NCBI GenBank assembly: GCA_023261845.1 | Contig: JALNJZ010000004.1 | Span: 73,003-137,002 of the forward strand | From: Candidatus Terraquivivens tengchongensis | Lineage (GTDB): Archaea; Thermoproteota; Nitrososphaeria_A; Caldarchaeales; Wolframiiraptoraceae | Length of the DNA: 64,000 nucleotides | Reading direction: 5' to 3' | Shown here: in pieces, positions 44,985 through 63,201 of the stretch | Layout of the letters: each line of letters opens with the position of its first letter | How positions within the stretch are numbered: position 1 is the stretch's first letter | The notes under the pieces: model-generated | The model's database searches: none | What the model was told of the DNA's origin: nothing | What the model saw: only the letters and a program-made list of their open reading frames with translations | Translations under genes and position numbers: made by a program

Positions 44985-45113
44985 GTTTTAAAGTTTGATT
45001 TCCGCATCCTCATAGGCAAGGCGTATTAATATTGTTTTCAAACTCTTTCTATGTAGTTTATCGCATGCATTTGTTTGCCTATCTTCGTGATGAACACAAG
45101 CTTCCTATTGATT

Positions 45114-45296
45114 CTAGTGGCAACAATGCCCTGAATGTTCAGAATGTCCGCCAGCATATTTTGTCGGATTCTTATCGAACGTTGTCTTACATATTTGGTT
45201 ACAGAAGTAGTATGTTTTGCCCATATATTCTGATTTGAACTTGGCAGTTTTCTCGTCCACATCCATACCGCAAACTGGGTCTTTAGCCATATTCAT
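45114..45296 (-). CDS. YHS/TRASH domain metal-binding protein
   Basis: KDPVCGMDVD...YYFC...C...F..NP.KY, His/Cys tail. Confidence 0.88.
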   Translation of the reverse strand: MNMAKDPVCGMDVDEKTAKFKSEYMGKTYYFCNQICKTTFDKNPTKYAGGHSEHSGHCCH

Positions 45297-45380
45297 ATTT
45301 CACCTCCTATGTATTCGCTTACAACTTGAGGGATTTAAAATTGCCGAATTGCTGAGAGCAAATAAGTAACTGAAAACCAT

Positions 45381-45437
45381 TGTATAGGTAGCTACCGAGG
45401 TTGTTGAAATATCAAAATACTACGCTTTAAGATGCAA
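45381..45437 (+). repeat. Degenerate duplicate of thiN 3' end (copy B)
   Basis: Translates V*VATEVVEISKYYALRCK vs VEVATEVAEISKQYASRCK. Confidence 0.8.
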
Positions 45438-45573
45438 AAAACTGAAAAGCTGTCAGCGAGAGAGTGCTGTAATATCTGCTGGCTCTGGAAAACTAGGTAA
45501 GCTTTTCCTACACCAAAACATTTATTTCCGCCTGATTGAACTCTTCTTTTTAGCTAAAGGAGTCTAAAAGGAT

Positions 45574-46779
45574 ATGGCGCCAAGGATCTTATCTCAAGAG
45601 GTTGCGCGTGAATTTTATCTGCTGAGGGTTGATGATGAGAAAGTTAATTATTTCGAGGCCCTTTGGAGCATTCCAGAGAAAGTGACTTATAACGCGTATC
45701 TGTTAGTAGGAAATGGTGAGGTTGTTCTATTTGATTGCTGGAAGAATACCTATGCTGATGAGCTTGTTGAGACGATTAAAGGGATCGTGGACCCACGGGA
45801 TATAACGCATATAATTGTTCATCATGCCGAGCCAGATCACTCCGGTTCTCTTCCGAGGGTTCTTGAGGTAAACGGGTTCAGGGCTGAGGTTGTGACCTAC
45901 TCCATGGGCAAATCCATTCTCGAAGCCTTATACAAGATATCCCCTAAGTTCAGGATAGTGAAGGATGGTGATGAGCTCGCATTGGCTGGAGAGAACATCA
46001 AGATTATCCACACACCGTGGCTACACTGGCCCGAGACCATAATGAGTTATCTTTCAGGACGTAAGATATTGCTTTCGTGTGACGCTTTTGGAGGCTACTC
46101 GATCCCAAGAACCATCTTTGATGATGAAGAGGTTGTCCGAGAGTATCTGCCGAGTGTCAGGAAATACGTCGCAACAGTAATAGGATTCTACAGACAACAC
46201 ATAATCCGGAACGTAGAGAAAATTCAAAGCCTTGGACTAAGCATTGATATGATAGCTCCGGCCCACGGGCTTATATGGAAAAGGAGGCCACAACTGATTG
46301 TAGATTACTACAGGGCGTTAGCTGAAGGGCGTCCCGACGAGTATAAGATTCTAGTCATTTCCGGCTCGATGTACGGCCTGACGGAAGCGGCTACGAGAGT
46401 CGCCGTTGAAGAAGTGGAGAGGTTAGGGGGTCGTGTGGTTTTCTACCGGTTCGATGATTCCGAGCAACCTCCGTTTTCTGATATCCTAGGCGATGCAATA
46501 GACTCAAAAGCAATTATCCTCGCTACGCCGACTTACGAGGTTGGCATCTATCCGCCGCTAGATCAACTGGTTGAGTTAATCACTAAGAAGATTCCACAGA
46601 AGCCGGTACTCGTAGTAGGTTCTTATGGTTGGGCTGGTGTTGCGGCCAAGAAGGTCTCGGAGAAGCTTGGAGGTTCGGGCTTTAAGGTGATCGATGTTAT
46701 CGAATTTCAGGGATCTGCGAGTGAGAAGAACATTCAGAGGATTAGGGAGGGTGTGAAAAAACTTTTCGAATCACCATAA
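45574..46779 (+). CDS. fprA: Flavodiiron protein (FprA, A-type flavoprotein)
   Basis: TYNAYL, HHAEPDHSG, LHWPET, SCDAFG, APAHG, flavodoxin SMYG.T, GSYGW. Confidence 0.92.
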   Translation: MAPRILSQEVAREFYLLRVDDEKVNYFEALWSIPEKVTYNAYLLVGNGEVVLFDCWKNTYADELVETIKGIVDPRDITHIIVHHAEPDHSGSLPRVLEVNGFRAEVVTYSMGKSILEALYKISPKFRIVKDGDELALAGENIKIIHTPWLHWPETIMSYLSGRKILLSCDAFGGYSIPRTIFDDEEVVREYLPSVRKYVATVIGFYRQHIIRNVEKIQSLGLSIDMIAPAHGLIWKRRPQLIVDYYRALAEGRPDEYKILVISGSMYGLTEAATRVAVEEVERLGGRVVFYRFDDSEQPPFSDILGDAIDSKAIILATPTYEVGIYPPLDQLVELITKKIPQKPVLVVGSYGWAGVAAKKVSEKLGGSGFKVIDVIEFQGSASEKNIQRIREGVKKLFESP

Positions 46780-46980
46780 AAGCGAGAATTACGACCTGTT
46801 ATCTCTCGAGGATGTGGAGGGGTCTCTGATATGATGAACAGACCGTGGAGTGGATTGTACATGCTTAACATGTGGGCGGTGAAATTGCTACCACAATTCT
46901 CGTAACAGCCATATTCTTAGGATGTTTGAGAATATGACCGAAGGACGAGTTGCCATTTATCTATAGAGAGTTTGTTCCCG

Positions 46981-47029
46981 AATTAGTTTTACATCTGTGG
47001 AAAAATTTTTCCAGCATGCTGAACTAATT
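46981..47029. repeat. Second copy of the palindromic ~48-bp element (left arm decayed)
   Basis: 47000-47029 matches 16856-16885 at 29/30; starts AATTAGTT. Confidence 0.8.
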
Positions 47030-47156
47030 ACTCTATATACTCATAGAACTTTCTTTAATGCAAAACCGCAGACAATCAATCATATAAAGACGTATTTGTC
47101 CCATGCCATGGATAGTGACGGTGGATGGCACTATTATCTGGGAATTAATCTTTCGT

Positions 47157-47339
47157 CTACGTTTCTCTGGAATGATATTCACCAACGCCTACAATTATCG
47201 CCATTAAACCCAATAGTATAAGTATCCAAGGCCAGAAGCCAACATAAAAGAGTATGGCGAGTCCTATCAAGAAGGCCCCACCGGACACAGAAAGCCAAAG
47301 CCTCCTCCTCGAACTCCCATCTCTGCTTTTCTCAGGCAC
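47157..47339 (-). CDS. Small two-TM membrane protein
   Basis: GGAFLIGLAILFY..FWPWILILLG. Confidence 0.6.
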   Translation of the reverse strand: MPEKSRDGSSRRRLWLSVSGGAFLIGLAILFYVGFWPWILILLGLMAIIVGVGEYHSRET

Positions 47340-47762
47340 AAAATTTTTTCTCTTAGGGGAACTTAAAAGGTTTATGATTTAAACGCCAGCAACTATCTCC
47401 AATTGCCATATAACTCTAATGTAATTTTCATACCCTTAGGTTACGCTAGTCGGCAGATATACGTCCTTTTATTTTTTAACAGAAAGGGGAACGAAAAATT
47501 GAAAATATGGATATTATGTCATGAAAGATATTGATGAAGAAATTATTGGTTTCATTTTTGCTTCTTAATCAATGATGATGATTTTTATAGTAGTGATAAC
47601 AATAACCGCAATAGCCGCCTACTATGTGGAAAATCAGCCCAAAGAAAAGAAATATTCAGCTTTTAAGCAACTAGGTAGGCTAACTCTCTTCATAAGCCAT
47701 CGTGGAAAATAGGGTCGAAAAAATGAAAATGATTGTTACACCTGTAACAATTCTTAAAAGTA

Positions 47763-47847
47763 TGCGGGGGGTGGGATTTGAACCCACGAACCCCTACGGG
47801 ACAGGAGCCTCAGTCCTGCGCCGTTGACCAGGCTTGGCAACCCCCGC
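47763..47847 (-). tRNA. tRNA-Leu(GAG)
   Basis: GCGGGGG acceptor stem, CAGGA/TCCTG anticodon stem with CT-GAG-GC loop, long variable arm, GGTTCAAATCC T-arm; CCA not encoded. Confidence 0.95.
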
Positions 47848-47924
47848 CTTATTTTACCCAAGCTGATAGGAGGTTTTCTCCTTTTAATAAATTTACATAT
47901 CTGCATCCTATATTTTGTGCGGTT

Positions 47925-49124
47925 TTAGGTTATGCTTCGCTGAGGGGCTCTCATGATTTTTATACTCGTAAGTAAGCCGATGATTGCCACAGATTCTGTC
48001 GCTATAGCAAACAGCACCATAAGAATCACGAGGCCGTGTTGATATAGGTATCCGTAAACCATCGAGCCAACCATCCATGCCATTCCGAAGAAAGCTCCGA
48101 ACATACCGTATCCGTATGCTCTGCCTTCTATGGGCACTATGTCTGCTATTGCTGCACGCGCAGTGCTCTCGTAGATTCCCATTGCTGCTCCCCAAAACAC
48201 GCTGGACAATAGAACCAAACGAAGATCACCCATAACGAGTGTTGGAACGACTAAAGCCGATAGCACGGGCGCCACTACGAGCGAGGCTAAGCCGACCCTA
48301 TCGTAAATCATTCCCATAGGAAAAGCGAGAAATCCGTCGACGAGCATGGCTACAAGATACATCATAGCTATCACGTAATCTGCAAAGCCTTCAGCCCTAA
48401 GGTAATATGAGACGTTGACCCAAGGCATGAAGCCTAAGGCGATCAAAGACATAGAGGCTGTATACAACCAGAATGCCTTACCAAGTACAACTCTGCTCTT
48501 TAGTATTGGAACAGAAGCTTCTGCCGATCTCACCTTAGGGTATTTGCTGTATGCAGTGAGGAGGAGCGCTATGGATATGGCTGCGGGTAATGCTAACAGT
48601 GAAAACGTCACGAAGTAAGAGTTGCTAGTCACATACAACGTCACTGAAACCATCAAAGGGCCCATGACCGCCCCTGCCTGGTCCAGTGCTTCGTGGAGAC
48701 CGAAGGCTTTGCCCTTACCCGCCTTTTCCGTTACCTCGGCTATTATGACGTCCCTTACTGGAGTCCTCAAGCCCTTGCCTATCCTCTCTAGGAATATGAG
48801 AAATATCGCTAACTGCCAATACCCGGATAGCGCCAGAAGCGGGCAAGCAATCAAGTTCAGTGCATATCCAGCGAAGACCAATGACCAGTAAACCTTGCTA
48901 GACCTCCAATGGCCTGCTAGCGTGCCGCTAAGCAACCTCGCAACATAACCTAAAAACTCGCCTATACTCGCTAGGCTGGCGAAGAACGCCGTCGCACCTA
49001 AGAGCCCTACGTAAGAGCCAAAAACCGACCTGGCACCCTCATACGTCATATCTGCGAACAGCGAAACTAATGAGAGTAGAATGAAGACCGTGAAAAGCTC
49101 CTTGCCTAGGACGCGGAAACCCAT
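47925..49124 (-). CDS. MFS transporter
   Basis: SLFADMTYEGARS, ERIGKGLRTP.RD, GKAFGLHEALDQ.GA; ~12 TM. Confidence 0.9.
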   Translation of the reverse strand: MGFRVLGKELFTVFILLSLVSLFADMTYEGARSVFGSYVGLLGATAFFASLASIGEFLGYVARLLSGTLAGHWRSSKVYWSLVFAGYALNLIACPLLALSGYWQLAIFLIFLERIGKGLRTPVRDVIIAEVTEKAGKGKAFGLHEALDQAGAVMGPLMVSVTLYVTSNSYFVTFSLLALPAAISIALLLTAYSKYPKVRSAEASVPILKSRVVLGKAFWLYTASMSLIALGFMPWVNVSYYLRAEGFADYVIAMMYLVAMLVDGFLAFPMGMIYDRVGLASLVVAPVLSALVVPTLVMGDLRLVLLSSVFWGAAMGIYESTARAAIADIVPIEGRAYGYGMFGAFFGMAWMVGSMVYGYLYQHGLVILMVLFAIATESVAIIGLLTSIKIMRAPQRSIT

Positions 49125-49250
49125 CTTTTTATCACCAAGCGTTTTAATGTTGTCTCATGCAACGACCCGATGTTATGTGGTTTATTAAGACCGAGGCTGA
49201 TTTAAAAGTCATATTTCGTTAACCAGGCTTGGCATAATCCTTCCAAGCCG

Positions 49251-51062
49251 CTAAATCGCACATGTTTCAGGCATGGGTATTGCTTCTAGGAATTCCTTTT
49301 GGAATTCTGGCTCGGCAGCTAGCTCCACGTATTCTATCTTCTTAGCGACGTTACATGCAACATCTCTCAGGGTCTTTGAAAGAAGCATAGCTCTCGCACC
49401 GGCACCAGCAGCATTACCAACAATCCTTATCTTGCTCAAGTCTATGTTAGGATACAACCCTATAATTTTTGCCGAGATTGGATTAAGAAAGAAACCAAAC
49501 GTACCGGCAACGTAAAGCCTCTCAGCTTCTGATACATCTACCTGAAGCTTCTTCATCAAAATGTTCATGCCAGTCCTGATCGCTGCCTTTGCCAGCTGTA
49601 TTTCTCTTATGTCCTTCTGCGTCAACACTATGTCCTCGCCTATGGCCGTGTTCTCTTTGTATTCTACGACGAATTCTGGATAATTCCTATCATTCATCCT
49701 TATGCGTCTTGTGCCTACATTCGTGTTCAACCTTCCCGACTTATCCATCAGACCTGTCGTAAATAAACCAGCAACTAAGTCGACAACCGCAGAACCTGTC
49801 ATGCCTCTTGGCTTTACGTTACCTATAACACTATAGCTCACCTCACCATTAGCCATAACCTCTATCCCGTATATCGCACCGATGGTGGCCCGCATTCCGT
49901 AGGTTATGTGGGCGCCCTCAAACGCAGGGCCAGATGCGGTTGAGCAAGCGACAAATTTTCCATCCTTCTTGACGACTATCTCAGTATTCGTTCCTACATC
50001 AACTAAGATTGCAGCATCCGCATCTTCTTGCATGTTGGTTGCTATGATGTCGGCTACAACGTCCGAGCCCATATATCCCGCGATTAGCGGCGGCATAAAG
50101 AGTCTAGCTTCAGCATTCGCACGTATACCTACACTTTTTGCCATAACACATAATGGTTCTCTTGTCGTGGGTGTGTACGGGAAATATGCTAACCTTTTCG
50201 GCTCAAGACATAAAAGGAAATGATGCATGACTGTATTACCTACAGCCACTACCTCATAAACGTCTTCAACGTCACTTCCAGTTGTATCACATGCCGTGTT
50301 TATGAGTTTATTTATACAGCTGATTATTTTTTCTTGCAACGCTTTAACACCTTCCTTTAAGGCATAGTCGAGCCTAGATACGACGTCCTCACCATAAGCT
50401 ATCTGTGGGTTGATATCGGAAACTGTTGACAAAGTCTTACCACTCATTAGGTCGACTAGGTAACCAACAACTTTGGTTGTACCCACGTCTACTGCGAAGC
50501 CAAGAGGTCTGCAGTTCTCTCGTACATCGATTATCTCATCGTTGTAAGTTATAAGCGAGAGTTTTTTCTCAATACCTACATCGGCTATACGGGAAAGCTT
50601 CTGTAACGCATGAAGATTAAATCGTTTTGGTACACTTAACGATGATACAACTTCATCCAATGCACCCCATACTTTAGCAGGTAGTGTGACGTTAACTTTC
50701 TGGACTACAGAATCAAACCGCTCCTCAAACACTTCGCCTTCAACTGATACGACATATTCGCCCAACCTACTCTCGCCCGGCACGAATACCGATATCGCAT
50801 TCTCTCTAACTATCTTGCATCTGCAAGAAAGTCTATAACCTTCGTTCAGCTTCTTTGAGCTGAGCACTATTTTTTCATCACTAGTTAAATCAGATATACT
50901 ATCTGAGCCGACGATTATTTTGACCATACACTTTCCACATAACGCCTTTCCATTGCAAGGTCCAATGATGTCAATTCCTGCCCTGCGAGCAACTTCAAGC
51001 AAAGATTCGCCGATTTTTGCCTCAACCCTTTTCCCTTCTGGCATGAAGCTGACGATAACCAT
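49251..51062 (-). CDS. ASKHA-family reductive activator of corrinoid proteins (RACo/DUF4445 type) with N-terminal [2Fe-2S]
   Basis: CNGKALCGKC...RLSC ferredoxin; DVGTT, GEDVVSR, GNTVMHH, DVGTNTE, GPAFEG, QLAKAAI, GNAAG.GA. Confidence 0.9.
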   Translation of the reverse strand: MVIVSFMPEGKRVEAKIGESLLEVARRAGIDIIGPCNGKALCGKCMVKIIVGSDSISDLTSDEKIVLSSKKLNEGYRLSCRCKIVRENAISVFVPGESRLGEYVVSVEGEVFEERFDSVVQKVNVTLPAKVWGALDEVVSSLSVPKRFNLHALQKLSRIADVGIEKKLSLITYNDEIIDVRENCRPLGFAVDVGTTKVVGYLVDLMSGKTLSTVSDINPQIAYGEDVVSRLDYALKEGVKALQEKIISCINKLINTACDTTGSDVEDVYEVVAVGNTVMHHFLLCLEPKRLAYFPYTPTTREPLCVMAKSVGIRANAEARLFMPPLIAGYMGSDVVADIIATNMQEDADAAILVDVGTNTEIVVKKDGKFVACSTASGPAFEGAHITYGMRATIGAIYGIEVMANGEVSYSVIGNVKPRGMTGSAVVDLVAGLFTTGLMDKSGRLNTNVGTRRIRMNDRNYPEFVVEYKENTAIGEDIVLTQKDIREIQLAKAAIRTGMNILMKKLQVDVSEAERLYVAGTFGFFLNPISAKIIGLYPNIDLSKIRIVGNAAGAGARAMLLSKTLRDVACNVAKKIEYVELAAEPEFQKEFLEAIPMPETCAI

Positions 51063-51202
51063 TCTTTCCTTGTTCCCCCAGATTCAGCTCACATCCCCGT
51101 TAAAAGCATATATCCTTTAAAAGTCAAACTGCTATACCGATACAATATTTACACATACATGTAAAGCTATAAATAAATAGCAGATAAAAGTTTCGCGAGT
51201 AC

Positions 51203-51904
51203 GTGACGCAAGCAGAAGATGTTATAGTTAGCAAGCAACTAGCCAGACTTAAAGAGGCAATACTGAACGGTGATGCAAACACCGCAAGAGAGGCAGCTAC
51301 TATCTTAAAAGAGAAAGGTCTCTTGCCCCTCGACATAGTTAATCGAGCCATTAAACCAGCGATGGATGAGATGGGTAAAAGGTATGAGAGGTTAGAGGCA
51401 TTTCTTCCTGACCTAGTCTTAGCAGGTGAGGCGGCCCAAGAAGCATTGAAAGTTATACTACCAAAAGAAGGGGAAGAAGCTTTCATCAAGGGCAAGGTCG
51501 TCATCGGAACTATATACGGAGACATACATGATATAGGTAAGAACATCGTGGCAGCGATACTGAGTGCCAACGGTTACAAAATAATAGACCTAGGTAATGA
51601 TGTGCCACCTGAAAGGTATATTGAAACGGCAAAGAAAGAGGGCGCGCATATTATAGGCATATCATGTCTCCTGACACCATCAATGTACTATATGAGGGAT
51701 GTTATCAGAAAGTTAGAAGAAGAAAACATTAGGGACAAGTTTTACGTGATCATTGGTGGAGCAGCAGTTTATCCAGATTGGGCTAAGGAAATTGGTGCAG
51801 ATGGATGGGCCAAAGATGCCGAAAGAGCGGTCCAGCTTTGCGATACCCTAATCGAAAGGGGCAAGGAACTTCCTAAACCCGTTATTTTAGGCGAATGGCG
51901 CTAG
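51203..51904 (+). CDS. Methyltransferase cognate corrinoid protein (MtaC/MtmC-like)
   Basis: Cap domain FLPDLV; GDIHDIGKNIV (DxHxxG), DLG.DV, S.L, IGGA. Confidence 0.93.
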   Translation: MTQAEDVIVSKQLARLKEAILNGDANTAREAATILKEKGLLPLDIVNRAIKPAMDEMGKRYERLEAFLPDLVLAGEAAQEALKVILPKEGEEAFIKGKVVIGTIYGDIHDIGKNIVAAILSANGYKIIDLGNDVPPERYIETAKKEGAHIIGISCLLTPSMYYMRDVIRKLEEENIRDKFYVIIGGAAVYPDWAKEIGADGWAKDAERAVQLCDTLIERGKELPKPVILGEWR

Positions 51905-51920
51905 TTGGAGGGGCAACTTC

Positions 51921-53303
51921 TTGGATTTACTTTTCAACATTCTAGACAAGACACTCACAGGTCCTCCTATTGAAAAACGTGATTTTGAGTTTAAGCTAGT
52001 TCCAAAGACGACACGAGATGTTCTTAAAGAATACGGCCTCGAAAAGACGTTTGACCCAGAGAACCCAATAAACACTGACCTAAAGCTCGCTGAACAATTT
52101 TACAAAGCTGGATATGAGTTAGCACTAAGGCTCGGCATGTTCTGTCCAGATACGAAAAGGAGAGTAATTTTCACAGAAGAAGAGATTAAGGAAGCTTTAA
52201 GGAACGCTCCAACAGAAGTCACGCTCGGCTATGGCAAAGATAAAGTTACGATAAGGAGTAGGAAACCTGAGGATAGAAATCCTCCAGTCGCCGAAGGGTC
52301 GGCTTTAGGCATGTCGATAAGCGAGGAGTACTTCATACCGCTCTGCATGGCAATAGCACAGTACAAAGTCATAGATATCATTCTTGCACCTACACTAGAT
52401 ACGATAAATAAACGTGAAATTAGGGCGAGGACACCTTACGAGACAATTATGGGAATGTATGAGGCCAAGTACGTTAAAGAGGCCCTAAGACGTATAGGAA
52501 GACCTGGAATGCCGCTTCATGGTGTCGAGGGTGCTCCAACAGAGTACGGCTACTTCTCAGGCTTCCTCTGGGGTGGGTTCGAACCTGATAGAACAATTGG
52601 TATAGCGCTCATACCCGAGCCGATAACACTGTCCTATCAGATACTTCATAGAGTTGTCGTTAACCATCTAATAGGCTCACCCCTTGAGGCGGGACATATG
52701 CTAAACATAGGCGGCTACTTTGGTTCACCCGAAGGTGCGGTTGTCGGAGCCGTTGCTGCTCAGATTCTTCAGACTGCATCGATGTTCCCAACAGTCGTTG
52801 AAAGCACAATACTAGATGCGAGGTATTTCGTAAACACTAACAGAGAGGCTCTTTGGGCTACGAGCACTAGCATGCAGGCGAGAACGCTCGGCAACAAGGT
52901 AATGAACCTTGGCATAACGAGCCAGGTGAGTGGTCCATGTACGGACATGTTACTGTATGAAACGACAACGATAGCTATAGCGGATTCTGTTTCAGGTGTA
53001 GCGATAGAGATCGGCACAAGACCAGCGGCATGTAGGTACAAAGATCACGGAAGCGCGCTCGAAAACAAATTCTTCGCAGAGGTTCTTAAATCGTCGGCTA
53101 AGAACTTAAAACTTACAGACGCGAACGAGATGGTAAAGGCACTTTTGCCCAAGTATGAGCACAAGCTCAAAGATCCTCCAAAAGGAAAAAGCTTCCCAGA
53201 ATGTACGGACCTAAGGACGCTCCAACCTTCGAAAGAGTGGTTGGAGATATACGAAAGAGTTTGGAAGGAACTCGAGGACCTTGGACTTCCTCGGTGGGAG
53301 TAG
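51921..53303 (+). CDS. mtmB: Monomethylamine:corrinoid methyltransferase MtmB homolog without pyrrolysine
   Basis: C.DT.R.I.FTEEEI, GRPGM, GGY.G.PEG, AGP/SGPCT.M.LYE, PPKGKSF.EC; no in-frame TAG; GGAGGG RBS before TTG. Confidence 0.85.
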   Translation: MDLLFNILDKTLTGPPIEKRDFEFKLVPKTTRDVLKEYGLEKTFDPENPINTDLKLAEQFYKAGYELALRLGMFCPDTKRRVIFTEEEIKEALRNAPTEVTLGYGKDKVTIRSRKPEDRNPPVAEGSALGMSISEEYFIPLCMAIAQYKVIDIILAPTLDTINKREIRARTPYETIMGMYEAKYVKEALRRIGRPGMPLHGVEGAPTEYGYFSGFLWGGFEPDRTIGIALIPEPITLSYQILHRVVVNHLIGSPLEAGHMLNIGGYFGSPEGAVVGAVAAQILQTASMFPTVVESTILDARYFVNTNREALWATSTSMQARTLGNKVMNLGITSQVSGPCTDMLLYETTTIAIADSVSGVAIEIGTRPAACRYKDHGSALENKFFAEVLKSSAKNLKLTDANEMVKALLPKYEHKLKDPPKGKSFPECTDLRTLQPSKEWLEIYERVWKELEDLGLPRWE

Positions 53304-53304
53304 C

Positions 53305-54663
53305 TTGCCATTCAGAGAGTTGGCATATGAAAACGCATATGAGCTTGCCTTCGGTTTTGCTAAGAAACCTCTAAGTTATGGGTTAGGGCTTTCTGTCGGT
53401 GATGGTAAAGTTATACCCGAAGTCAAATACTTGCTAAAACCTGGCCTTGAACAGAATCTCAATGCACTTGTGGAAGAATATAAGAAGGTAACGCTTTCAA
53501 TCATGGAAAGAGCAGCAAACTTAGGGGTCACAGACGTTCAGCTAGAGACGGAGTTTGTTGAACCTATGACTATGAACCCTAGCTGGGGGGCGGCTGTGAT
53601 AGAGACACAGAAAGAGGTTCTTTCAACCTATTACGAAAGGTATGGAATTAGGTCAGCACTTAGAGCTACAATAGCCGACGTAAGGAGGTTTAGTAAGGGG
53701 CTTCGTAAGGGCGAGTATTTTCAGGCGATCATGGATTCGTTTATAAACGCGGCCGAGAGTGGTGCGGACCTACTATCAATCGAATCGAGAGGAGGTCAGG
53801 AAATTTTTTCATACTCGCTCATAAGAAACGATCTAGCAGGCATGCTGTTCTCTTTTGGTATCCTCGCGCCGAGGGATGTCAGATACATTTGGAAAGAAAT
53901 TGTGAAGAATGCAAAGAGGGTCATACCTGCAGGAGATACCGCTTGTGCCCTAGCTAACAGCGCCATGGTCTTAGCAAACGGGTTAGTTAACAGGAAGATA
54001 CCGCATACGCTGGCCGCAGTCATTAGGGCCATGTCGGCGGTCAGAACTCTGGCATGCTACGAAGAAGGTGCAATGGGTCCCGGAAAAGATTGCGCATACG
54101 AGAATGTAATAATCAAAATAATCACAGGTTATCCGATGAGTATGGAAGGCAAGACTTCGGCCTTTGCCCACTCCAGCCTAGTAGGTAACATAGTTGCCGC
54201 AGCATGCGACCTTTGGTCCAACGAGACGATAGTCGTTGAGGATACATTTGGTGGCAAGACACCTGCTATAATATTTGAGATGTTAAGTTACGACACGGCT
54301 TTAATGAACGAGTCGATAAGGTCAAGAAATAACAAGATTCTTCAACAATTGTTCATTAACTCAGACAAGTACAGAGACCCGCAAGCTTTAATCTTGTCAC
54401 CCGATAACGCGTTCAGAATAGCGTCCGCCATTGTTTCAGCAAATTCGGATTACGAAAGAACAATTTCCGCCGCACTTGAGGCAATCCGTATAATAGAGGA
54501 TAATCTGAGTATATTGAATATGCCAGAAATAGAGAAGCGATACCTTGCGACACTGAAAAACTTTTTTGAAGCAGTTCCTGATGAGCATAAATTAATTGAA
54601 GAATCTATTAAAAAGTATAGCGGAAAGGTTCCTGAATTTAATGCAACCAATTACGAGCTTTGA
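53305..54663 (+). CDS. mtaB: Methanol:corrinoid methyltransferase MtaB homolog (ORF track start 53281)
   Basis: LLSIES.GG.E, GDTACA.AN, GPGKDCAYEN, MEGKTS..AHS, DLWSNE, SD.YRDPQA. Confidence 0.9.
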   Translation: MPFRELAYENAYELAFGFAKKPLSYGLGLSVGDGKVIPEVKYLLKPGLEQNLNALVEEYKKVTLSIMERAANLGVTDVQLETEFVEPMTMNPSWGAAVIETQKEVLSTYYERYGIRSALRATIADVRRFSKGLRKGEYFQAIMDSFINAAESGADLLSIESRGGQEIFSYSLIRNDLAGMLFSFGILAPRDVRYIWKEIVKNAKRVIPAGDTACALANSAMVLANGLVNRKIPHTLAAVIRAMSAVRTLACYEEGAMGPGKDCAYENVIIKIITGYPMSMEGKTSAFAHSSLVGNIVAAACDLWSNETIVVEDTFGGKTPAIIFEMLSYDTALMNESIRSRNNKILQQLFINSDKYRDPQALILSPDNAFRIASAIVSANSDYERTISAALEAIRIIEDNLSILNMPEIEKRYLATLKNFFEAVPDEHKLIEESIKKYSGKVPEFNATNYEL

Positions 54664-54666
54664 AAC

Positions 54667-55608
54667 TTACCTTAATTTTTTGAATGGTTTTGCCAAAGAG
54701 GCTGGGCCTTTTACCTTTCTACCAGCGACGAATAAAAGGACTATCGTGAATAGATAAGGTAGCATCAGAGCAAACTGATAAGGTAAAAACGGTATGTTAA
54801 ATGCTTGAATCCTCAGTTGAAGAGCATCGATAAAGCTGAAAAGGAAAGCTCCGCCAAGCAGTAGCAACGGATTCCATCTAGAGAGTATTATTAACGCTAT
54901 AGCTATGTAACCTCTACCTTGCGTCATGTTATCTAAAAACATATTGTAGTAACCTATCGAGAGTAGTGATCCAGCAATACCAGCGATGCAACCTTCTAGA
55001 ATAAGCAGGGCATAACGCGTCAGGTTTACGTTGATTCCGAGGTAGTCGGCTGTTTGCGGGTCCTCACCTATAGCTCTGATCTTCAAACCTTTTTCGGTTT
55101 TGAAAAGCAGCCACCAAGTTAAGAACACTAACACGAAAGCCGCGTAAGTATGTGGGAGATGGCTAAACAGAATCTTGCCGATTACCAGTATCTGAGAGAG
55201 CACAGGTATCTCGATAGGTTGGAGCGTTGTTTGAATATGTGGAGGTATAGGACTGACGTACCAACCGAAGCTAGCCCTGTATAAGTAAGAAGTTATGCCT
55301 ATTGTTAGTAGGTTGAGTGCCAAGCCGGTGACCATTTGGTCTAGCGCCAGAGTTATCGTCAATATGGCAAATAGAAGGCACAGGACTGCTCCAGCGATGC
55401 TCGCAAGCAACGTGGCATAGTATAGATCTCCTGTATAAAAAGCGACCATAAACGCCACGAACGCGCCCATCAACATAGTACCTTCAAGGCTAAGGTTCAG
55501 GATTCCGCTGCGTTCGACAAGTAGCTCTGCTAGCCCAGCCAGCAGAAGTGGTGTGAGCAGAGTTATGCTGGAGTAGAGTAAACCTAAAATAACTTCGGCC
55601 GTTATCAT
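54667..55608 (-). CDS. Nucleoside-type ABC transporter permease
   Basis: ERSGILNLSLEG.ML.GA, GL..RA.GE.P, GRGYIAIA, LPY. Confidence 0.9.
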   Translation of the reverse strand: MITAEVILGLLYSSITLLTPLLLAGLAELLVERSGILNLSLEGTMLMGAFVAFMVAFYTGDLYYATLLASIAGAVLCLLFAILTITLALDQMVTGLALNLLTIGITSYLYRASFGWYVSPIPPHIQTTLQPIEIPVLSQILVIGKILFSHLPHTYAAFVLVFLTWWLLFKTEKGLKIRAIGEDPQTADYLGINVNLTRYALLILEGCIAGIAGSLLSIGYYNMFLDNMTQGRGYIAIALIILSRWNPLLLLGGAFLFSFIDALQLRIQAFNIPFLPYQFALMLPYLFTIVLLFVAGRKVKGPASLAKPFKKLR

Positions 55609-56669
55609 AACTTCAACCTCTCCATTACCTTTTTGGACAGCTTATCTTCAACGAAGTAACCTGTCAAGATGAATATTATTATAAGGGCCTGAATTATGCC
55701 CGCCATGCCCACAGGTATCTGGGCCATCCTATGCATTGTCATGCTTCCGTTTATTATCCCACCTAAGAAAAAGGAGGTTAGGGCTATTAGCAACGGATTC
55801 AGATAACCGAGTAGGGCTACGGCTATTCCAGTGTAACCATAAGGCGAAGTTGTTGGAGAGAGCTCGAGCCTCATCTTGTGCTGTATTCCTAAAACCTCAA
55901 AACCTCCAGCTAGACCCGCTAAGAAGCCACTTATGAGCATGGCTTGGATTATTAGATGCGTGGTGTTTATGTTCGCGTACTCTGCAACCCTTGGACTCGA
56001 ACCAAGTATATCCAGCTTGAGTCCGAACGCGCTCCTTTTCAGGAAGAAATAGGCTAGTGGAACGACAATGACAAAAGCCAATAAAACACCTACATGAATC
56101 CGAGTACCTTGTACAGCTATGGGCGCCCATAGCGCAGGGTTTATCGTTTCCGTCTCAGGAAACATCGAGACTGGGTCTCTGAACGGGCCGTGTAGAAGAT
56201 AGCTGACTAGATATATGGCTACGTAGTTGAACATCAAAGTGGTGATTACCTCGTTTATACCATACGATGCCTTCAGGATAGCCGGTATGAGTGCCCAAAT
56301 CGCTCCACCTAAACCTGCAATCAAAACAATGACCGGAAACGCTAAGGGCGCCGGAAGATCCTTAAACATTATGCCCATGATTGCCGTCATCATGCCGCCA
56401 ATGTAAAACTGTCCTTCCGCACCTATGTTCCATACCTTCGCCCTAAAAACCACCGCAAGCCCTATACTTATTAATAATAATGGTGTCGCCCTTACGAACG
56501 TCTCCGAGATTGCTGAAGGTGAAAAGGCGCCTTGAAAGAGCCAGTAATAAGCCTGTAGCGGGTCTTTACCCATGAAGAAGATTAAGACAGCACCAATAAA
56601 GAAAGCAAGACTAATGGTTAGTATGGCTAGTGCCGCTCTAATTAGCAGAAGTCGCTGCTCTAGCGTTAT
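55605..56669 (-). CDS. Nucleoside-type ABC transporter permease (first canonical start 56573; probable start ATA 56669)
   Basis: WNIGAEGQF, NEVITTLM.NY, GYTGIAVALLG; frame open upstream with an extra TM helix. Confidence 0.85.
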   Translation of the reverse strand: MTLEQRLLLIRAALAILTISLAFFIGAVLIFFMGKDPLQAYYWLFQGAFSPSAISETFVRATPLLLISIGLAVVFRAKVWNIGAEGQFYIGGMMTAIMGIMFKDLPAPLAFPVIVLIAGLGGAIWALIPAILKASYGINEVITTLMFNYVAIYLVSYLLHGPFRDPVSMFPETETINPALWAPIAVQGTRIHVGVLLAFVIVVPLAYFFLKRSAFGLKLDILGSSPRVAEYANINTTHLIIQAMLISGFLAGLAGGFEVLGIQHKMRLELSPTTSPYGYTGIAVALLGYLNPLLIALTSFFLGGIINGSMTMHRMAQIPVGMAGIIQALIIIFILTGYFVEDKLSKKVMERLKL

Positions 56670-58158
56670 AGCCGGCTCCCTCCGCGGCCAGCATATAGGA
56701 GCCTATCAAAACGGGATCTGCCTCTTCTCTTTCAAAAATCCTCGTAAACTTACCATCGCTGATTACGGCTATCCTATCGCTAAGTTCCAGAATCTCGTTA
56801 AGGTCTGATGAGATGAGGAGTATTCCAACACCTTTCGATGCAAGTTCTGACAACGCCCTCCTTACGTAATAAGCCGATTTGGCATCTAAACCTGCTGTCG
56901 GCTGTTCTGCTATCAGAATTTCCGATGATGTGATAATTTCACGGCCGACTATTATTTTTTGGATATTTCCGCCCGAAAGGTATTTCACTGGTGTCTTAAG
57001 GCTTGGTGTCTTCACATTCATGAAAGATACAACCTTTTTCGCGAACTCATTTATTCTACCAAAGTTTAGAGTATTGCCACGTTTTTTAAATTCTTCCTTA
57101 TCAAAGGATCTAAGGACACTATTTATCGCTACGCTAAGTGTTGGAGCTACGCCGAGCTCTACCCTTTCGGCAGGTATGTAGTTTAACCCATCCAAGTTGT
57201 CATTTTTCCCTCTAAAAGTTATAATGCCTGAGGCTGGTTTTCTAAGGCCTACTATGGCCTCAACGAGTTCCTTTTGACCATTACCCTCGACACCAGCTAT
57301 TCCTAGAATCTCACCCATGTATAGTTCAAAGGATATGTCTTTTACTTTTGTCAGACCTTCATCATCGTTCACCACTAAATTTTTTACAACCAACAAAGGC
57401 TCTTTATTGAATGAGGGTGCAACCTTTGTAGTTGTAGGCATAAGCCTTTCACCGACCATTAGCTCAACAAGACGTGATTCATCATCTATTTCGTCTGTTC
57501 TGAGGGTAGTTATGACACGACCCATCCTCATAACCGTTATCCTATCGCTGATGCGCATAGCTTCACGAATTTTATGCGTAATTAGAACTATGCTGTATCC
57601 GTTAGATGAGAGGGACTTGAGCAACTGTAGAAACCTGTCAATTTCAGGACCGCAGAGCATTGACGTGGGTTCATCAAATATTAAGATTCTTGCCCTGCTC
57701 AGTAAGAGCCTAAGTATTTCTATTCTTTGTCTTTCACCTACTGATAGAGCATAGAGTGGTGAATCTAATTTTACTTTAAACCCGAGAATCTTCGAAAGCT
57801 CCTCAATCTCCGTTAGTGTATGCTTCATATTAAATTTTTGACCAATAAGTCCAAGTCTCAGGTTCTCTAATACAGTCATCGTTGGTATGAGTGTGAAGTG
57901 TTGATGGACCATACCTATGCCTTGCTTTAAGGCATCTAATGGTGAGTTGAATTTAACTTCTCTTCCTTCGACATATATAGAGCCACTAGTCGGCTTAAGA
58001 CAGCCGCTCAATATTTTCATAAGCGTTGTCTTACCAGCTCCGTTCTCGCCCAACAAAGCATGAACCTCACCCTTTCTTAGATCAAAATCGACCTCATAAT
58101 TCGCCACTATACCTCCAGGGTAAACCTTCGTTATCTTTCTTAATTCGACTACGAGCAT
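56638..58158 (-). CDS. Nucleoside/sugar ABC transporter ATP-binding protein (tandem NBD)
   Basis: GENGAGKTT, VHQHF, LSVGERQR, DEPT, LSGGN.QK; likely start MLVVEL at 58158. Confidence 0.92.
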   Translation of the reverse strand: MLVVELRKITKVYPGGIVANYEVDFDLRKGEVHALLGENGAGKTTLMKILSGCLKPTSGSIYVEGREVKFNSPLDALKQGIGMVHQHFTLIPTMTVLENLRLGLIGQKFNMKHTLTEIEELSKILGFKVKLDSPLYALSVGERQRIEILRLLLSRARILIFDEPTSMLCGPEIDRFLQLLKSLSSNGYSIVLITHKIREAMRISDRITVMRMGRVITTLRTDEIDDESRLVELMVGERLMPTTTKVAPSFNKEPLLVVKNLVVNDDEGLTKVKDISFELYMGEILGIAGVEGNGQKELVEAIVGLRKPASGIITFRGKNDNLDGLNYIPAERVELGVAPTLSVAINSVLRSFDKEEFKKRGNTLNFGRINEFAKKVVSFMNVKTPSLKTPVKYLSGGNIQKIIVGREIITSSEILIAEQPTAGLDAKSAYYVRRALSELASKGVGILLISSDLNEILELSDRIAVISDGKFTRIFEREEADPVLIGSYMLAAEGAGYNARAATSAN

Positions 58159-58204
58159 AAACCTCGCACCTACAAAAAAAGTTTGTGTGTTGTTACAGGC
58201 TAAT

Positions 58205-59329
58205 TCACTTCCATCTTTCTGGGACCCAGTCTTCGTATATCGGGACAACAAACTTCCCATCTATTATTTGTTTTTCAAGATCTTCGACTAGTTTCAGCAC
58301 ATCTGGCGGAACTTTTGTCTTAAGCTCAGGGTTCCATACCAGCTTAGCCCACCCCTCTTTCATGCCCCAATTGTATATTCCACCTTCCCATTTGCCCGCC
58401 CGCTTCATCTCTATAAGGTGCTTCACGAACGTTTTCAGATCCCACGTTACACTGGCTAAGACGACATCTGGTGCCAATCCAGATTGATCAACGATGTTTC
58501 CGAAGCAATAGACGGTCTTACCCTCTTTCAGAGCTTCTCTGGCCGCTTCAAATGGACCGTATCTTTCAGCATATATGAAATCAGCACCAGCTTCGATTAA
58601 TGCTTTTGCCGCTTCCTTTCCCTTTACAGGGTCAAACCAGCTTTCGATAAATACCGCCCTGATATTAACCCCTGGGTTTACTGATTTTGCACCTGCTGCA
58701 AAAGCGTTGACCAGCCTATTGACGTCGGGTACGGCATACGCAGTAACTACTCCTATGACGTTTGTCTTTGTCATCTTACCAGCAGTCACACCAGCCAAAT
58801 ACGCCGCATCCTGAATCCAATAGTCGTAAAGCACAACGTTGGGTGGATACTCTAAGCCTGTTGGACCCGAGCCTTGTGCAAAAGCTACATTAGGAAATTC
58901 TTTCGCTATCTTTATGGTTACCTCATGGTATCCCCAGCTATGTGGAATTATTATATCATAACCTGCCGCTATGTATTCTCTGATAACCCTTTCAACGTCT
59001 GCTGTATCAACCTTCTCTGAATATACATACTCCACGTCTAAATTATTCACGGCCCACGTCATGGCTTCATGCATAACAGTATTCCATGGTTCTTCGATAG
59101 GCGTCACATAAATGACCGCAACCTTAATCTTCTTCACAGGGGTGGGCTGAGGCGCTACTCCTATGGACGAAAACGCATACCAGGCTACGATACCTACGAC
59201 TATTATAAGAGCCACGATCAATACCACAGCCATCTTTGATATGCCTCTCTTTACGTTGTCATGGATGGCACACATTTTTATCATGTATCCAGTAAAATTT
59301 TCCGAATATTTATCTATATTTTTACGCAT
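58205..59329 (-). CDS. BMP-family ABC substrate-binding protein (true start probably downstream of 59329)
   Basis: AYLAG..AG.MTKTN.IG, F..GAK.VNP, W.DP.K..EAA..LI..GAD; KRGIS class III-like signal. Confidence 0.9.
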   Translation of the reverse strand: MRKNIDKYSENFTGYMIKMCAIHDNVKRGISKMAVVLIVALIIVVGIVAWYAFSSIGVAPQPTPVKKIKVAVIYVTPIEEPWNTVMHEAMTWAVNNLDVEYVYSEKVDTADVERVIREYIAAGYDIIIPHSWGYHEVTIKIAKEFPNVAFAQGSGPTGLEYPPNVVLYDYWIQDAAYLAGVTAGKMTKTNVIGVVTAYAVPDVNRLVNAFAAGAKSVNPGVNIRAVFIESWFDPVKGKEAAKALIEAGADFIYAERYGPFEAAREALKEGKTVYCFGNIVDQSGLAPDVVLASVTWDLKTFVKHLIEMKRAGKWEGGIYNWGMKEGWAKLVWNPELKTKVPPDVLKLVEDLEKQIIDGKFVVPIYEDWVPERWK

Positions 59330-59546
59330 TTATGTAAATATTATACCAACATGGCAAAAAGTAAGGTCAAGCGCACTTTTATAGAGATAAAGTTAGCTAA
59401 TCTAAGAATAATACAGCTTACTGTTTTGAACAATGAGTGTAAGTGGAATATCCATGAGCAACCTAACCTTTTTAATTTTTATTAAAGCTCGTGAAACATT
59501 CTCGCATTAAGATTTATAATTTCCCAAGATAAGAATAAGAAACGGA

Positions 59547-59667
59547 CCCGCGGTAGCTCAGCCTGGTAGAGCTTCCGGCTGTAGGGTCTGCCTTTGGCAG
59601 ACCTCCCCAGCCTACCGGGCGCACAGAAACCGGAGTGTCGCAGGTTCAAATCCTGCCCGCGGGACCA
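59547..59667 (+). tRNA. tRNA-Tyr(GTA) with 44-nt intron at 37/38 (59585-59628), CCA encoded
   Basis: CCCGCGG/CCGCGGG acceptor (C1:G72), TCCGG/CCGGA anticodon stem, GTA 59581-59583, BHB-like CTGT/ACAG helix with AGG and AAA bulges. Confidence 0.93.
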
Positions 59668-59800
59668 TCTTCAATTTTTTGCTTTCATGTAAAAAGTTCA
59701 TTCGAAAGCTATCGTTTGACAGTTTTGAAGCCTATAACGAATGCAAGGTAAAGAATAGATATATAATATTAATTTTAGGATTTTTCACGAAAGACACGCC

Positions 59801-62233: not shown

Positions 62234-62244
62234 GACGGGTAGAA

Positions 62245-63201
62245 ATGTCGGTCATTCTACACTCTAAAAAATGCACTGAAATATCAAATCACTCAGTTAA
62301 AGGAATCATATTTGATATAGAAAGGTATGCAATCCACGACGGTCCTGGCATTAGAACGACCGTTTTCATGAAGGGTTGTCCGCTTAAATGTTGGTGGTGC
62401 CACAATCCAGAAGGAATAGAGCTCTCCAAGAACCTGATGTATTTTGAGTATAAATGCATCAATTGCAAAATGTGTGTAAAAGTATGCCCGACAAATGCCA
62501 TATCTTTTGATGGTGAGAAAAAGACAATCGATAGAGTGCTTTGTTCAAGATGCGGCATATGTGCTGAATACTGTCCTACGGGCGCTCTTAGGATTGTCGG
62601 GTATGAGGTTACTGTATATGAACTGGTTAGAGAAATTAAGAAAGATGTCCTCCTATATGACCGCTCTGGGGGTGGAGTTACTTTTTCAGGCGGGGAGCCA
62701 CTCTTTCAACCGTTATTCTTAAAAGAAGTTCTAAAAGAATGCAAAAAGGCAGGCATACATGTAGCACTAGACACTACGGGATACGCTCCACCAGAAATAT
62801 TTGAATTATTTATAGATGATGTTGATTTATTTTTATATGATATAAAATTACTGGACGACAAAGAGCACAAAAAATATACAGGCGTTTCAAATGAATTTAT
62901 AAAGAAAAATTTAGCTATTCTTATAGAGAGGGGCAGAGGGAATTCTGTAATCTTACGGTTCCCAGCGATCCCTGAAATAACAGATACGGAAAAGAATCTA
63001 AACGAACTTTTACTCTTTATCTCGAAATTAAAAGGGGTAAACGAGGTTGACGTACTGCCCTTTCATGACGTAAGCGAAAAGTATGACAGACTTGGCATGG
63101 AATATAAGATGAGGGGGCATAAAGCTCCATCAAAAGAAAGACTAAAATACATAAAGGAAAAGCTCGAAGGGGTCGGATTTTACGTCAAAATTGGAGGTTA
63201 A
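62245..63201 (+). CDS. Glycyl-radical enzyme activating protein (radical SAM with 2x[4Fe-4S] insert)
   Basis: HDGPGIRTTVFMKGCPLKCWWCHNPE, two CxxCxxCxxxCP, GGVTFSGGEP. Confidence 0.95.
   Translation: MSVILHSKKCTEISNHSVKGIIFDIERYAIHDGPGIRTTVFMKGCPLKCWWCHNPEGIELSKNLMYFEYKCINCKMCVKVCPTNAISFDGEKKTIDRVLCSRCGICAEYCPTGALRIVGYEVTVYELVREIKKDVLLYDRSGGGVTFSGGEPLFQPLFLKEVLKECKKAGIHVALDTTGYAPPEIFELFIDDVDLFLYDIKLLDDKEHKKYTGVSNEFIKKNLAILIERGRGNSVILRFPAIPEITDTEKNLNELLLFISKLKGVNEVDVLPFHDVSEKYDRLGMEYKMRGHKAPSKERLKYIKEKLEGVGFYVKIGG

Follow-up and report, generated by a model that had tools for sequence, protein, structure and literature searches.

An archaeal eight-gene island joining a corrinoid protein, a pyrrolysine-free MtmB-like methyltransferase, MtaB and a Bmp-type importer, and its possible role in hydrolytic N-demethylation

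Corrinoid methyl-transfer systems are understood as an inlet, the substrate:corrinoid methyltransferase (MT1), a carrier protein and an outlet, the methyl-acceptor methyltransferase (MT2), which feeds coenzyme M (CoM) or folate. What does such a system do when it has two enzymes of the inlet families and no outlet? The question is raised by positions 49251-54663 of a 64,000-nucleotide stretch of DNA (the window) from the archaeon Candidatus Terraquivivens tengchongensis. An earlier note, written from the sequence, had placed four genes there, namely a divergent gene for a RACo-type activase and a tight operon for a corrinoid protein (CoP), an MtmB-like enzyme and MtaB, and they were located exactly as claimed. 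The host genome (G000; 1.22 Mb in 14 contigs, 99.4% complete) is that of a non-methanogenic hot-spring archaeon of the Caldarchaeales (Aigarchaeota). Judged by gene content and gene order, the stretch makes up one half, that for methyl transfer, of a self-contained island of eight genes that moves horizontally. We tentatively propose that a cationic N-methyl compound is imported and demethylated by the MtmB-like enzyme and that MtaB would discharge the methyl group to water, which we regard as a serious possibility rather than as the expected outcome.

A recurrent unit of eight genes

The description of the locus as a self-contained four-gene cassette held for the genes and their linkage, but the true unit has eight genes and includes an ABC importer that extends to position 59329. 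Among 40 relatives of the same order, an MtmB-like gene of the cassette type was found in six, MtaB was present in exactly those six, and all six carried the same eight genes in the same order. Counting G000, the island occurred in seven of 76 genomes of the class, and a further search of the class gave none beyond these seven. When the neighbours of the island were mapped on G000 they fell on different contigs or at different places, with at least four flanking arrangements, and these differing flanks indicate that the island moved as a unit. The importer is part of the same co-inherited unit, because in addition to the conserved synteny its binding protein tracks the cassette. An orthologue of the binding protein (74-87% identity) was present in exactly the seven cassette-bearing genomes of 41; it was not found in the cassette-less congeners G001 and G005, and cassette-less members of genus g5 had only a paralogue of 39-41% identity.

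The four-gene core was also found without the importer in two genomes of other Nitrososphaeria lineages (L049 and L050), and a 2.8-Mb bin (L048) had the operon and the importer with no RACo match nearby. This gave ten cassette-bearing genomes in all; loci L044-L047, whose identities equal those of four of them, are probably duplicates and were not counted twice. Since the gene order recurs in nine other genomes and dN/dS, the ratio of nonsynonymous to synonymous substitution rates, was far below 1 in the five genes tested, the cassette is not a chance arrangement. Compared to the closest relative, dN/dS was 0.09 for RACo, 0.011 for the MtmB-like gene and 0.039 for both MtaB and the binding protein, and it was 0.037 for the CoP when compared to L015, the only comparison with a measurable dS; with dS saturated, all these values are rough. 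RACo, the CoP gene, the mtmB-like gene and mtaB were each present in one copy in G000. An MFS gene beside RACo (47925-49124) was considered as a further member of the unit and rejected, as it was syntenic in none of the relatives.

One corrinoid protein and two methyltransferases

The CoP matched the Pfam domains B12-binding_2 (57 bits) and B12-binding (94.5 bits), keeps the DxHxxG motif, and was the only PF02607 match in G000. Among the NCBIfam models it scored 186 against MtgC and 185 against pyl_corrinoid, compared to 130 and 120 against the MtaC models. In a tree of 36 CoPs, nine of them from cassettes, the MtaB-linked and the MtmB-linked proteins were split (98/96). The cassette CoPs stood on the MtmB-linked side, where the nine formed one clade (100/99) with the CoP of a second locus, L051 from Nitrososphaerota, as their sister (100/99). 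By family scores and tree position, the CoP belongs with the pyrrolysine-free MtmB-like enzyme as its cognate and is not an MtaC. The sole other B12-domain gene in the window encodes a B12-binding radical SAM protein of 483 amino acids (3635-5086) and is positionally unrelated to the cassette.

The MtmB-like protein matched PF05369 (280 bits) over profile positions 3-450 of 450, matched no family in NCBIfam, and aligned over residues 5-456 with PDB 1L2Q/1NTH (E 4e-55). The claim that this enzyme does without pyrrolysine was borne out: its 460 codons are open with no in-frame TAG, and His200 stands opposite Pyl202 of Methanosarcina barkeri MtmB, the X at position 202 of 1L2Q. When 18 members of the MtmB family were compared, the column equivalent to pyrrolysine was among the most variable. 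The gene is also the most conserved of the island, with 86-95% identity in the relatives compared to 64-86% for MtaB and 52-78% for RACo. In a tree of 68 rows built with a quick method, the cassette proteins formed a clade (100) with the L051 protein as sister (91). The L051 operon has the order CoP, MtmB-like gene (63% identical) and UroD-type MT2. Further out stood genes from Hadarchaeota and Hecatella with links to Bmp importers, and one of their loci, L054, also had an MT2 and RACo. Because the nearest relatives lie in MT1-CoP-MT2 operons (L051, L054 and L065), the MtmB-like enzyme is taken to be the loading enzyme.

Some neighbours of the related loci were recorded as well. Upstream of the L051 operon there are an MFS transporter gene and a gene for an amidohydrolase of the guanine/5'-deoxyadenosine/triazine-deaminase family (2126-3481), and close to the cassette of L050 there is an AlkZ-like DNA glycosylase gene (3668-4909). 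Both the deaminase-family and the AlkZ-like gene are related to modified bases, which may be a coincidence. Two or three pyrrolysine-free MtmB paralogues stood in tandem in Hadarchaeota and Hecatella (L058 441-4677, L064 140-6221 and L067 1431-4185), an arrangement that suggests paralogous enzymes handling a family of related substrates.

The mtaB gene is intact and purifying selection acts on it. Its product matched PF12176 with 553 bits and the NCBIfam model NF040651 with 541 bits, below the cut-off of 720, and aligned over residues 11-458 with PDB 2I2X (E 4e-128). Glu, Cys and Cys at positions 164, 220 and 269, which we take to be the zinc ligands, match those of 2I2X and were invariant in 20 sequences. 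The listed mtaB open reading frame (ORF), 53281-54663, overlaps the mtmB-like gene, and the TTG codon at 53305 lies one base past the TAG stop of that gene with a GGTGGGAG motif just 5' of it. This TTG is the likely start, since it yields the 452 amino acids found in all relatives, and mtaB appears to be translationally coupled to the mtmB-like gene.

No MtaC-type CoP lies beside the cassette mtaB, and the sole CoP is of the MtmB-linked type. MtaB was found in 47 of 401 genomes sampled from the phylum, with at most 50% identity outside the cassette clade. At 22 MtaB loci that are not cassettes, viewed 1.5 kb to either side, a CoP of its own adjoined MtaB in 12 and RACo in 13, and in none of the 22 did an MtmB-like gene or an MT2 stand beside it. 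In the MtaB tree, the ten cassette proteins share one side of a branch (100). The comparison supports a single recruitment of MtaB, without its own CoP, into the slot that is held by a UroD-type MT2 in the sister locus L051. The simplest history would be that an operon of CoP, MtmB-like gene and MT2, tied to a Bmp importer, gained MtaB once in place of MT2 and then spread.

The activase consists of a 2Fe-2S ferredoxin domain, a middle domain and an ASKHA ATPase, as in RACo/RamA activases (Fer2 41, Raco_middle 185 and RACo_C_ter 273 bits). Both named NCBIfam models scored below their cut-offs, AcsV with 408 bits (cut-off 800) and the RamA-type model with 147 (cut-off 500). The gene has a constant position across the six relatives over which its identity was measured, and from its family membership the protein is predicted to return oxidised Co(II) to Co(I) with ATP. 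The spacer between the activase gene and the operon may serve as a promoter. The features of the island are collected in Table 1. Elsewhere, the ORFs of the window included MCM, GINS, a Hel308-type helicase and type I-A Cas genes, as seen in the Pfam scan.

Table 1. Features of the eight-gene island in window coordinates (columns: feature, positions, strand, domains and remarks)
RACo-type ATP-dependent reductive activase of corrinoid proteins, 603 aa	49251..51062	-	Fer2 + Raco_middle + RACo_C_ter
Divergent intergenic spacer between RACo and operon, 140 bp, A+T-rich	51063..51202		TATA-like runs TTTAAAAG and ATAAATAAATA read in the sequence
Corrinoid (B12) protein CoP, 233 aa, methylamine/MtgC type	51203..51904	+	B12-binding_2 + B12-binding
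Pyrrolysine-free MtmB-family methyltransferase (MT1), 460 aa	51921..53303	+	PF05369
MtaB, methanol:corrinoid methyltransferase family, 452 aa	53305..54663	+	PF12176; start TTG 53305
ABC importer permease 1 (BPD_transp_2), convergent with mtaB	54667..55608	-	Pfam 133 bits
ABC importer permease 2	55605..56573	-	Pfam 132 bits
ABC importer ATPase, two nucleotide-binding domains	56638..58260	-	ABC_tran 168 bits, two stretches
Bmp/PnrA-family substrate-binding protein	58205..59329	-	Bmp (PF02608) 153 bits

Methyl acceptor, substrate and direction of transfer

None of the ten cassette genomes showed an MT2 within or next to the cassette, in DNA that reached 2 to 9 kb to either side of the locus and less at contig ends. 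The statement that the window has neither MT2 nor mcr agreed with the Pfam scan, in which URO-D, MtrH, Pterin_bind and MCR matched none of the 54 ORFs of at least 100 amino acids; shorter ORFs were outside the scan and pyl genes had no dedicated models. Searches of the whole of G000, each run with positive controls, found no MtrH, no CdhD, no MttB, neither MTHFR nor Mch, and no pterin-binding methyltransferase domain (Pterin_bind). McrA (PF02249) was not found in G000 or in G020, G024, G041, G042 and G043, and the control matched two methanogens. A methyl branch, for which the earlier note had also advised a search, was accordingly missing from this nearly complete genome as far as MTHFR, Mch, CdhD and the pterin-binding methyltransferase are concerned. 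With no downstream C1 pathway in G000, the methyl group is left without a recognised route to energy or carbon.

The sole UroD-family gene in G000 is MtaA-like and lies on the minus strand of another contig (C13, 3946-4968; L002 3946-4968). Its product scored 207 bits against the model for MtaA-type methylcobamide/methylcobalamin:CoM methyltransferases, whose cut-off is 244, compared to 44 against HemE. Each of the other six genomes of the genus has an orthologue (86-90% identity), and this holds also for the cassette-less G001 and G005, in which no corrinoid protein of the CoP type was found (PF02607). In a second genus, G020 and G024 showed no UroD-family match above the cut-off, no MtrH and no intact Pterin_bind, with only a broken Pterin_bind fragment in G024. 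G042 had no MtaA-type UroD, MtrH or intact Pterin_bind, and its UroD gene is a true HemE between hemL and hemH. Thus, no recognised MT2 class was found in three of the ten cassette genomes. The MtaA/CmuA-type gene of G043 lies about 13 kb from the cassette and its product is 31% identical to the L051 MT2 and 25% to the C13 protein; with 25-31% identity, the MtaA-type genes found in different cassette hosts are not orthologous. The C13 gene is decoupled from the cassette, as it is kept in G001 and G005, which lack the CoP, and no MtaA-type gene was found in G020, G024 and G042, and it was rejected as a dedicated MT2 on co-occurrence. It is flanked by an ornithine-cyclodeaminase/alanine-dehydrogenase-like gene and two alcohol dehydrogenase genes. 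The first suggestion of the earlier note, with the MT2 elsewhere in the genome, therefore survives in that there is one MtaA-like gene on C13, but comparative genomics separates this gene from the cassette. The recurrence of the cassette without MT2, which the earlier note had wanted tested, held for linked genes, none being seen in the ten genomes.

The importer consists of a Bmp-fold binding protein, two BPD_transp_2 permeases and a two-domain ABC_tran protein. Permease 1 (68-89% identity) and permease 2 were both syntenic in six of six relatives. The ATPase ORF overlaps the binding-protein ORF by 56 nt, and since the ATPases of the relatives have 497-514 amino acids it probably begins further downstream than listed. 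Among solved structures, the binding protein was closest to AtzT (PDB 6PI5, E 8e-49) and 3S99 (E 6e-41). AtzT has guanine (110 nM) and adenine (2.5 µM) as ligands but not GTP, seven of its residues contact the guanine, and 3S99 was modelled with adenine, according to the available parts of PMC6834077. These contacts were mapped with an offset of five between the numbering of that paper and the deposited sequence. Two are identical in the window protein (Ser97 and Trp194), one is conservative (Glu165 to Asp), one is a backbone contact (Phe98, here Trp) and three are changed: Tyr45 is Asn with a Trp one residue earlier, Asn218 is Glu and Asn220 is Tyr. These three changes make plain guanine an improbable ligand. 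The pocket would appear purine-like and yet not a guanine pocket, and its extra acidic residues would suit a cationic ligand.

Binding proteins of this family also accompany more distant MtmB-like genes. Bmp genes were found in seven of 18 such genome loci, from four of ten organisms and with one weak match; L064 has a lone Bmp binding-protein gene between its MtmB-like genes, and at the metagenome locus L109 a 60% identical binding protein stands head to head with CoP, MtmB-like and a second MtmB-like gene. As a separate observation, no convincing PurD (PF01071) was seen in G000 and four relatives: G000 gave 34.5 bits within a frame of 1082 amino acids and the others at most 48 bits. The GARS_A match in G000 is probably another ATP-grasp enzyme. 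The lineage may need purines from outside, and a purine-type importer would agree with such a need. Purine auxotrophy as a reason for the island was set aside and not used as evidence, the weak PurD matches being suggestive and not clean.

Demethylation with water as the acceptor would proceed in three steps. The importer would bring in a cationic or quaternary N-methylated purine-like compound, the MtmB-like enzyme would move the methyl group of this substrate to Co(I) of the CoP, and MtaB would work opposite to its role in methanogens, its zinc site activating water or hydroxide that takes the methyl group from CH3-Co(III) to give methanol and Co(I). The net reaction would be a hydrolytic N-demethylation independent of oxygen, folate and CoM, with the demethylated product as the benefit to the cell. 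In hosts without MT2 or a methyl branch, the four-gene core is catalytically complete only if both methyltransferases act on the CoP in opposite directions; with the MtmB-like enzyme as the loader, MtaB is left as the unloader and water as the acceptor. Data from in vitro work suggest reversibility of the MtaB reaction (PMC13488299, as far as available), and the MtmB-related proteins EmtA and AbeA are described as working physiologically in opposite directions, in different bacteria (PMC11912376, in part).

The energetics would depend on the substrate. Table 2 of PMC7374477, in the portion available, gives, in kJ per mol CH4, -107 for methanol, -241 for a betaine-type quaternary methyl group, -63 for choline and -31 for trimethylamine, values that come from different sources. 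By these values, methanol release would be downhill from an activated cationic N-methyl group and uphill from simple methylamines unless methanol is very low. The only assayed pyrrolysine-free MtmB, MtqB, uses quaternary amines (PMC13044021, available in part). From gene context, our guess at candidate substrates is ring-N-methylated guanine or adenine. A broader form of the proposal, in which the island is a mobile B12-dependent hydrolytic N-demethylase for the salvage of modified bases, its methanol escaping to neighbouring methyl-reducing methanogens of hot springs, is unlikely to hold in full.

The island is probably expressed in nature. Contigs of one metatranscriptome covered 41% of the sampled words of the stretch and, over 45001-64000, 27 of 30 bins, unevenly; the uneven depth points to RNA rather than contaminating DNA. 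Contig depth was about 12 for the mtmB-like gene, including a contig of 1448 nt (51763-53210, depth 12.2, four differences), 26-29 for the binding-protein gene (contig at 28.6) and 4-10 for the other importer genes. Beyond the island, window positions 59801-64000 hold genes for a glycyl-radical enzyme (810 amino acids) and its activase and then an Fe-alcohol dehydrogenase gene that runs off the window and had by far the highest contig depth, 165-197. The glycyl-radical enzyme adjoins the island only in G000 and one congener. Three raw-read RNA runs (X2-X4) gave 4, 2 and 53 reads, mainly from tRNA and from the region of the binding protein and glycyl-radical enzyme, too few for the cassette. 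A tRNA-Leu(GAG) gene (47763-47847) lies two genes from the island, and three X4 reads skip 22 bases within it (47801 to 47824), with only 24 bases on the shorter side; these may represent a relative's tRNA or processing.

For the second and more novel suggestion of the earlier note, that the MtmB-like enzyme would load and MtaB would release methanol, the evidence is circumstantial, namely the cognate CoP, the place in the MT2 slot, mobility without MT2 and the missing C1 branch; a locus without MtaB and the low depth of mtaB are contrary to it. These and several further points weigh against release of the methyl group to water. On the metagenome contig L106 (5450 bases), a CoP gene and an MtmB-like gene (84% identical) are followed by the convergent importer with no MtaB, and the convergent permease gene ends (2761) five bases from the mtmB-like stop (2755). 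Since L106 falls within the cassette clade (97), its lineage lost MtaB and retained the CoP, the MtmB-like gene and the importer, and either another outlet exists or that copy is decaying. RNA contig depth was 0.8-1.5 for mtaB and 0.5-1.6 for RACo, far below that of the mtmB-like gene, which weighs against an obligatory 1:1 partnership, although contig depth is a poor measure of expression. Hydrolysis of simple methylamines would be uphill under standard conditions, and a literature search on MtaB reversal found no report of physiological methanol release; the available part of one article on wetland Asgard archaea (PMC11291895) makes no mention of MtaB or MtmB. The link to purines draws on gene context and on a pocket that retains only part of the AtzT guanine contacts. 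As to the acceptor, G020 and G024 are 95% and 91% complete and the completeness of G042 was not given, five of the ten cassette genomes carry the MtaA-like gene of the genus, G043 has one in the vicinity of its cassette, and G041 has many. Finally, an unrecognised class of MT2 that could serve the island too is plausible, because modules of CoP, MtaB and RACo without a visible MT2 are common in the phylum and a like description has been given of the Brockarchaeota (PMC8065059).

The strongest alternative, only slightly less likely than release to water, has two inlets: the MtmB-like enzyme and MtaB would both load the shared CoP, from the imported N-methyl compound and from methanol, and an MT2 in trans would unload it. 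The methyl group would go through the MtaA-like C13 protein to a thiol in this genus and through an unrecognised enzyme elsewhere, and on to biosynthesis or volatile methyl-sulfur. This agrees with the MtaA-like gene of G000 and its orthologues in all four other cassette-bearing congeners, with the MtaA/CmuA-family gene in the same region as the G043 cassette, and with L106, which retains the CoP and the MtmB-like gene without MtaB. An MT2 in trans is also normal for the family, MtqA/MtbA being encoded elsewhere in Methanococcoides methylutens (PMC13044021), MT2 was not seen near many MtmB-like and CoP-MtaB loci, and for the MtaA-like proteins found in non-methanogens a role in methyl-sulfur or methyl-selenide metabolism has been proposed (PMC10418091, in the part available). 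However, the MtaA-like gene is retained in two congeners that have neither cassette nor CoP and was not found in three cassette hosts, no orthologous MT2 goes with the cassette, and searches for enzymes that could use the product gave neither Mcr nor Mtr, pterin-binding methyltransferase, MTHFR, Mch or CdhD. MtaB would have to pair with a CoP that is not an MtaC in any case, and uptake of methanol without a route to energy or carbon would bring no obvious benefit.

A reversed pairing is improbable. Here, MtaB would load the CoP from methanol and the MtmB-like enzyme would methylate an amine or ring nitrogen, a SAM-independent N-methylation of an imported or endogenous compound. The four-gene core would be catalytically as complete as with release to water, and MtaB would work in the usual direction. 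EmtA, which is related to MtmB, physiologically donates a methyl group to its substrate (PMC11912376), and N-methylation of simple amines by methanol would be downhill according to the free-energy table (PMC7374477). The nearest MtmB-like relatives argue otherwise, since in their MT1-CoP-MT2 operons (L051, L054 and L065) they must load. In addition, a linked importer suits a substrate that is consumed more than one that is modified, L106 keeps the remaining genes without MtaB, and no use for the product is evident.

There is similarly little chance of a different outlet, in which the methylated CoP feeds methionine synthesis through a split MetE or MtaB passes the methyl group to another nucleophile such as sulfide. 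A split-MetE pair (tandem PF01717) was present in five of five genomes tested, with or without the cassette, the G000 copy lying at C2:85242-87272. It stands there although neither MTHFR, Mch nor a pterin-binding methyltransferase was found as a source of the methyl group for methionine, so that suppliers of methyl-pterin seem to be missing. Methylcobalamin is accepted in vitro by core MetE-type enzymes, whose methyl donors in vivo are thought to be CoPs, but adjacent split-MetE pairs are predicted to use methyl-pterins and not CoPs (both from the available text of PMC7857596). The pair is found equally in the cassette-less G001 and G005, with no co-occurrence, and as a dedicated outlet for the island it was rejected and kept as a weak rival only. 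Nor does MtaB show a sign of a non-methanol ligand, given its PF12176 score and its retained zinc ligands. Ordinary methylotrophic methanogenesis from methanol and monomethylamine, which has the family names MtaB and MtmB in its favour and nothing else, is virtually refuted by the absence of McrA from G000 and five other cassette genomes, unless the missing 0.6% of G000 hides a full mcr operon, and by the lack of MtrH and of a pyrrolysine codon in the MtmB-like gene.

Comparison with known systems

The island has been kept by selection and has moved between genomes without an outlet enzyme, in hosts without a C1 pathway. If release to water is true, water would be a physiological methyl acceptor, nitrogen compounds would be demethylated by a new oxygen-free reaction, and anoxic hot springs would have an unrecognised biological source of methanol; if real, the hydrolytic cycle would make known parts into an enzyme system of a new kind. 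The four soluble proteins offer a small system for the role of MtaB in mcr-less TACK archaea, a question raised by the Brockarchaeota, and through the strict link of the island to a purine-type importer the substrates of the large pyrrolysine-free MtmB family can be sought. Where such genomes carry the annotations 'monomethylamine methyltransferase' and 'methanol methyltransferase', these are not evidence of methylotrophy.

The first system for comparison is MtqB/MtqC, which with MtqA (MtbA) forms the tetramethylammonium- and choline:CoM methyltransferase system of M. methylutens Q3c (PMC13044021). Compared by description, both have a pyrrolysine-free MtmB homologue with its own methylamine-type CoP in an operon without MT2. 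Since the substrate of MtqB is a quaternary amine, a quaternary or cationic N-methyl donor is the default expectation for the island, and because the column equivalent to pyrrolysine varies widely in the family, the two substrates probably differ. In contrast to the island, MtqBC works in a methanogen with CoM, MtbA and MCR, its operon has no MtaB, and no Bmp-type importer is reported for it in the available portion of that article; the island host has neither mcr nor a consistent MT2.

With M. barkeri MtaBC/MtaA (PDB 2I2X), the island shares the MtaB fold match and the conserved Glu/Cys/Cys, but it has no MtaC-type CoP, no MtaA in the unit and no MCR, and its MtaB missed the NCBIfam cut-off (541 compared to 720). 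The Brockarchaeota (De Anda et al. 2021) are mcr-less TACK archaea with mtaB beside a gene for a B12 protein and no MtaA, for which the authors postulated an undescribed acceptor step, transfer to tetrahydrofolate and the methyl branch of the folate pathway (PMC8065059, as far as its text was available). The island resembles them in its mcr-less TACK host and in having MtaB and a CoP with no MtaA in the unit. However, MTHFR, the pterin-binding methyltransferase and Mch were not found in G000, and in the island an MtmB-like gene stands between the CoP gene and mtaB, the CoP belongs to the MtmB-like enzyme, and an importer is included.

EmtAB and AbeABC, a cobalamin-dependent steroid methyltransferase and demethylase, likewise have pyrrolysine-free MT1 subunits that, by description, cluster with MtmB, and either direction of transfer is documented for them (PMC11912376). 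They differ from the island in that their substrates are steroids, with transfer to or from carbon, and AbeABC has an MT2 and the Wood-Ljungdahl pathway. In relation to AtzT and 3S99, the binding protein of the island keeps the equivalents of Ser97 and Trp194 and has a conservative change at Glu165, but differs in three contacts.

The proteins of the island are clear members of known fold families, and it is the assembly that fails the defining features of the named systems. The enzyme that resembles MtmB is not MtmB proper, as it has no pyrrolysine; the presence of MtaB does not make an MtaBC/MtaA system, as there is neither an MtaC-type carrier nor MtaA. The island is not a three-component system of MT1, CoP and MT2, with no linked or co-occurring MT2, and it does not belong to methanogenesis, with no mcr. 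It comes closest to a pyrrolysine-free system of the MtqBC type on the one hand and to the MtaB puzzle of the Brockarchaeota on the other, and it joins both in a mobile unit with an importer, in which the partnership of MtaB with a pyrrolysine-free MtmB-like enzyme is the new element.

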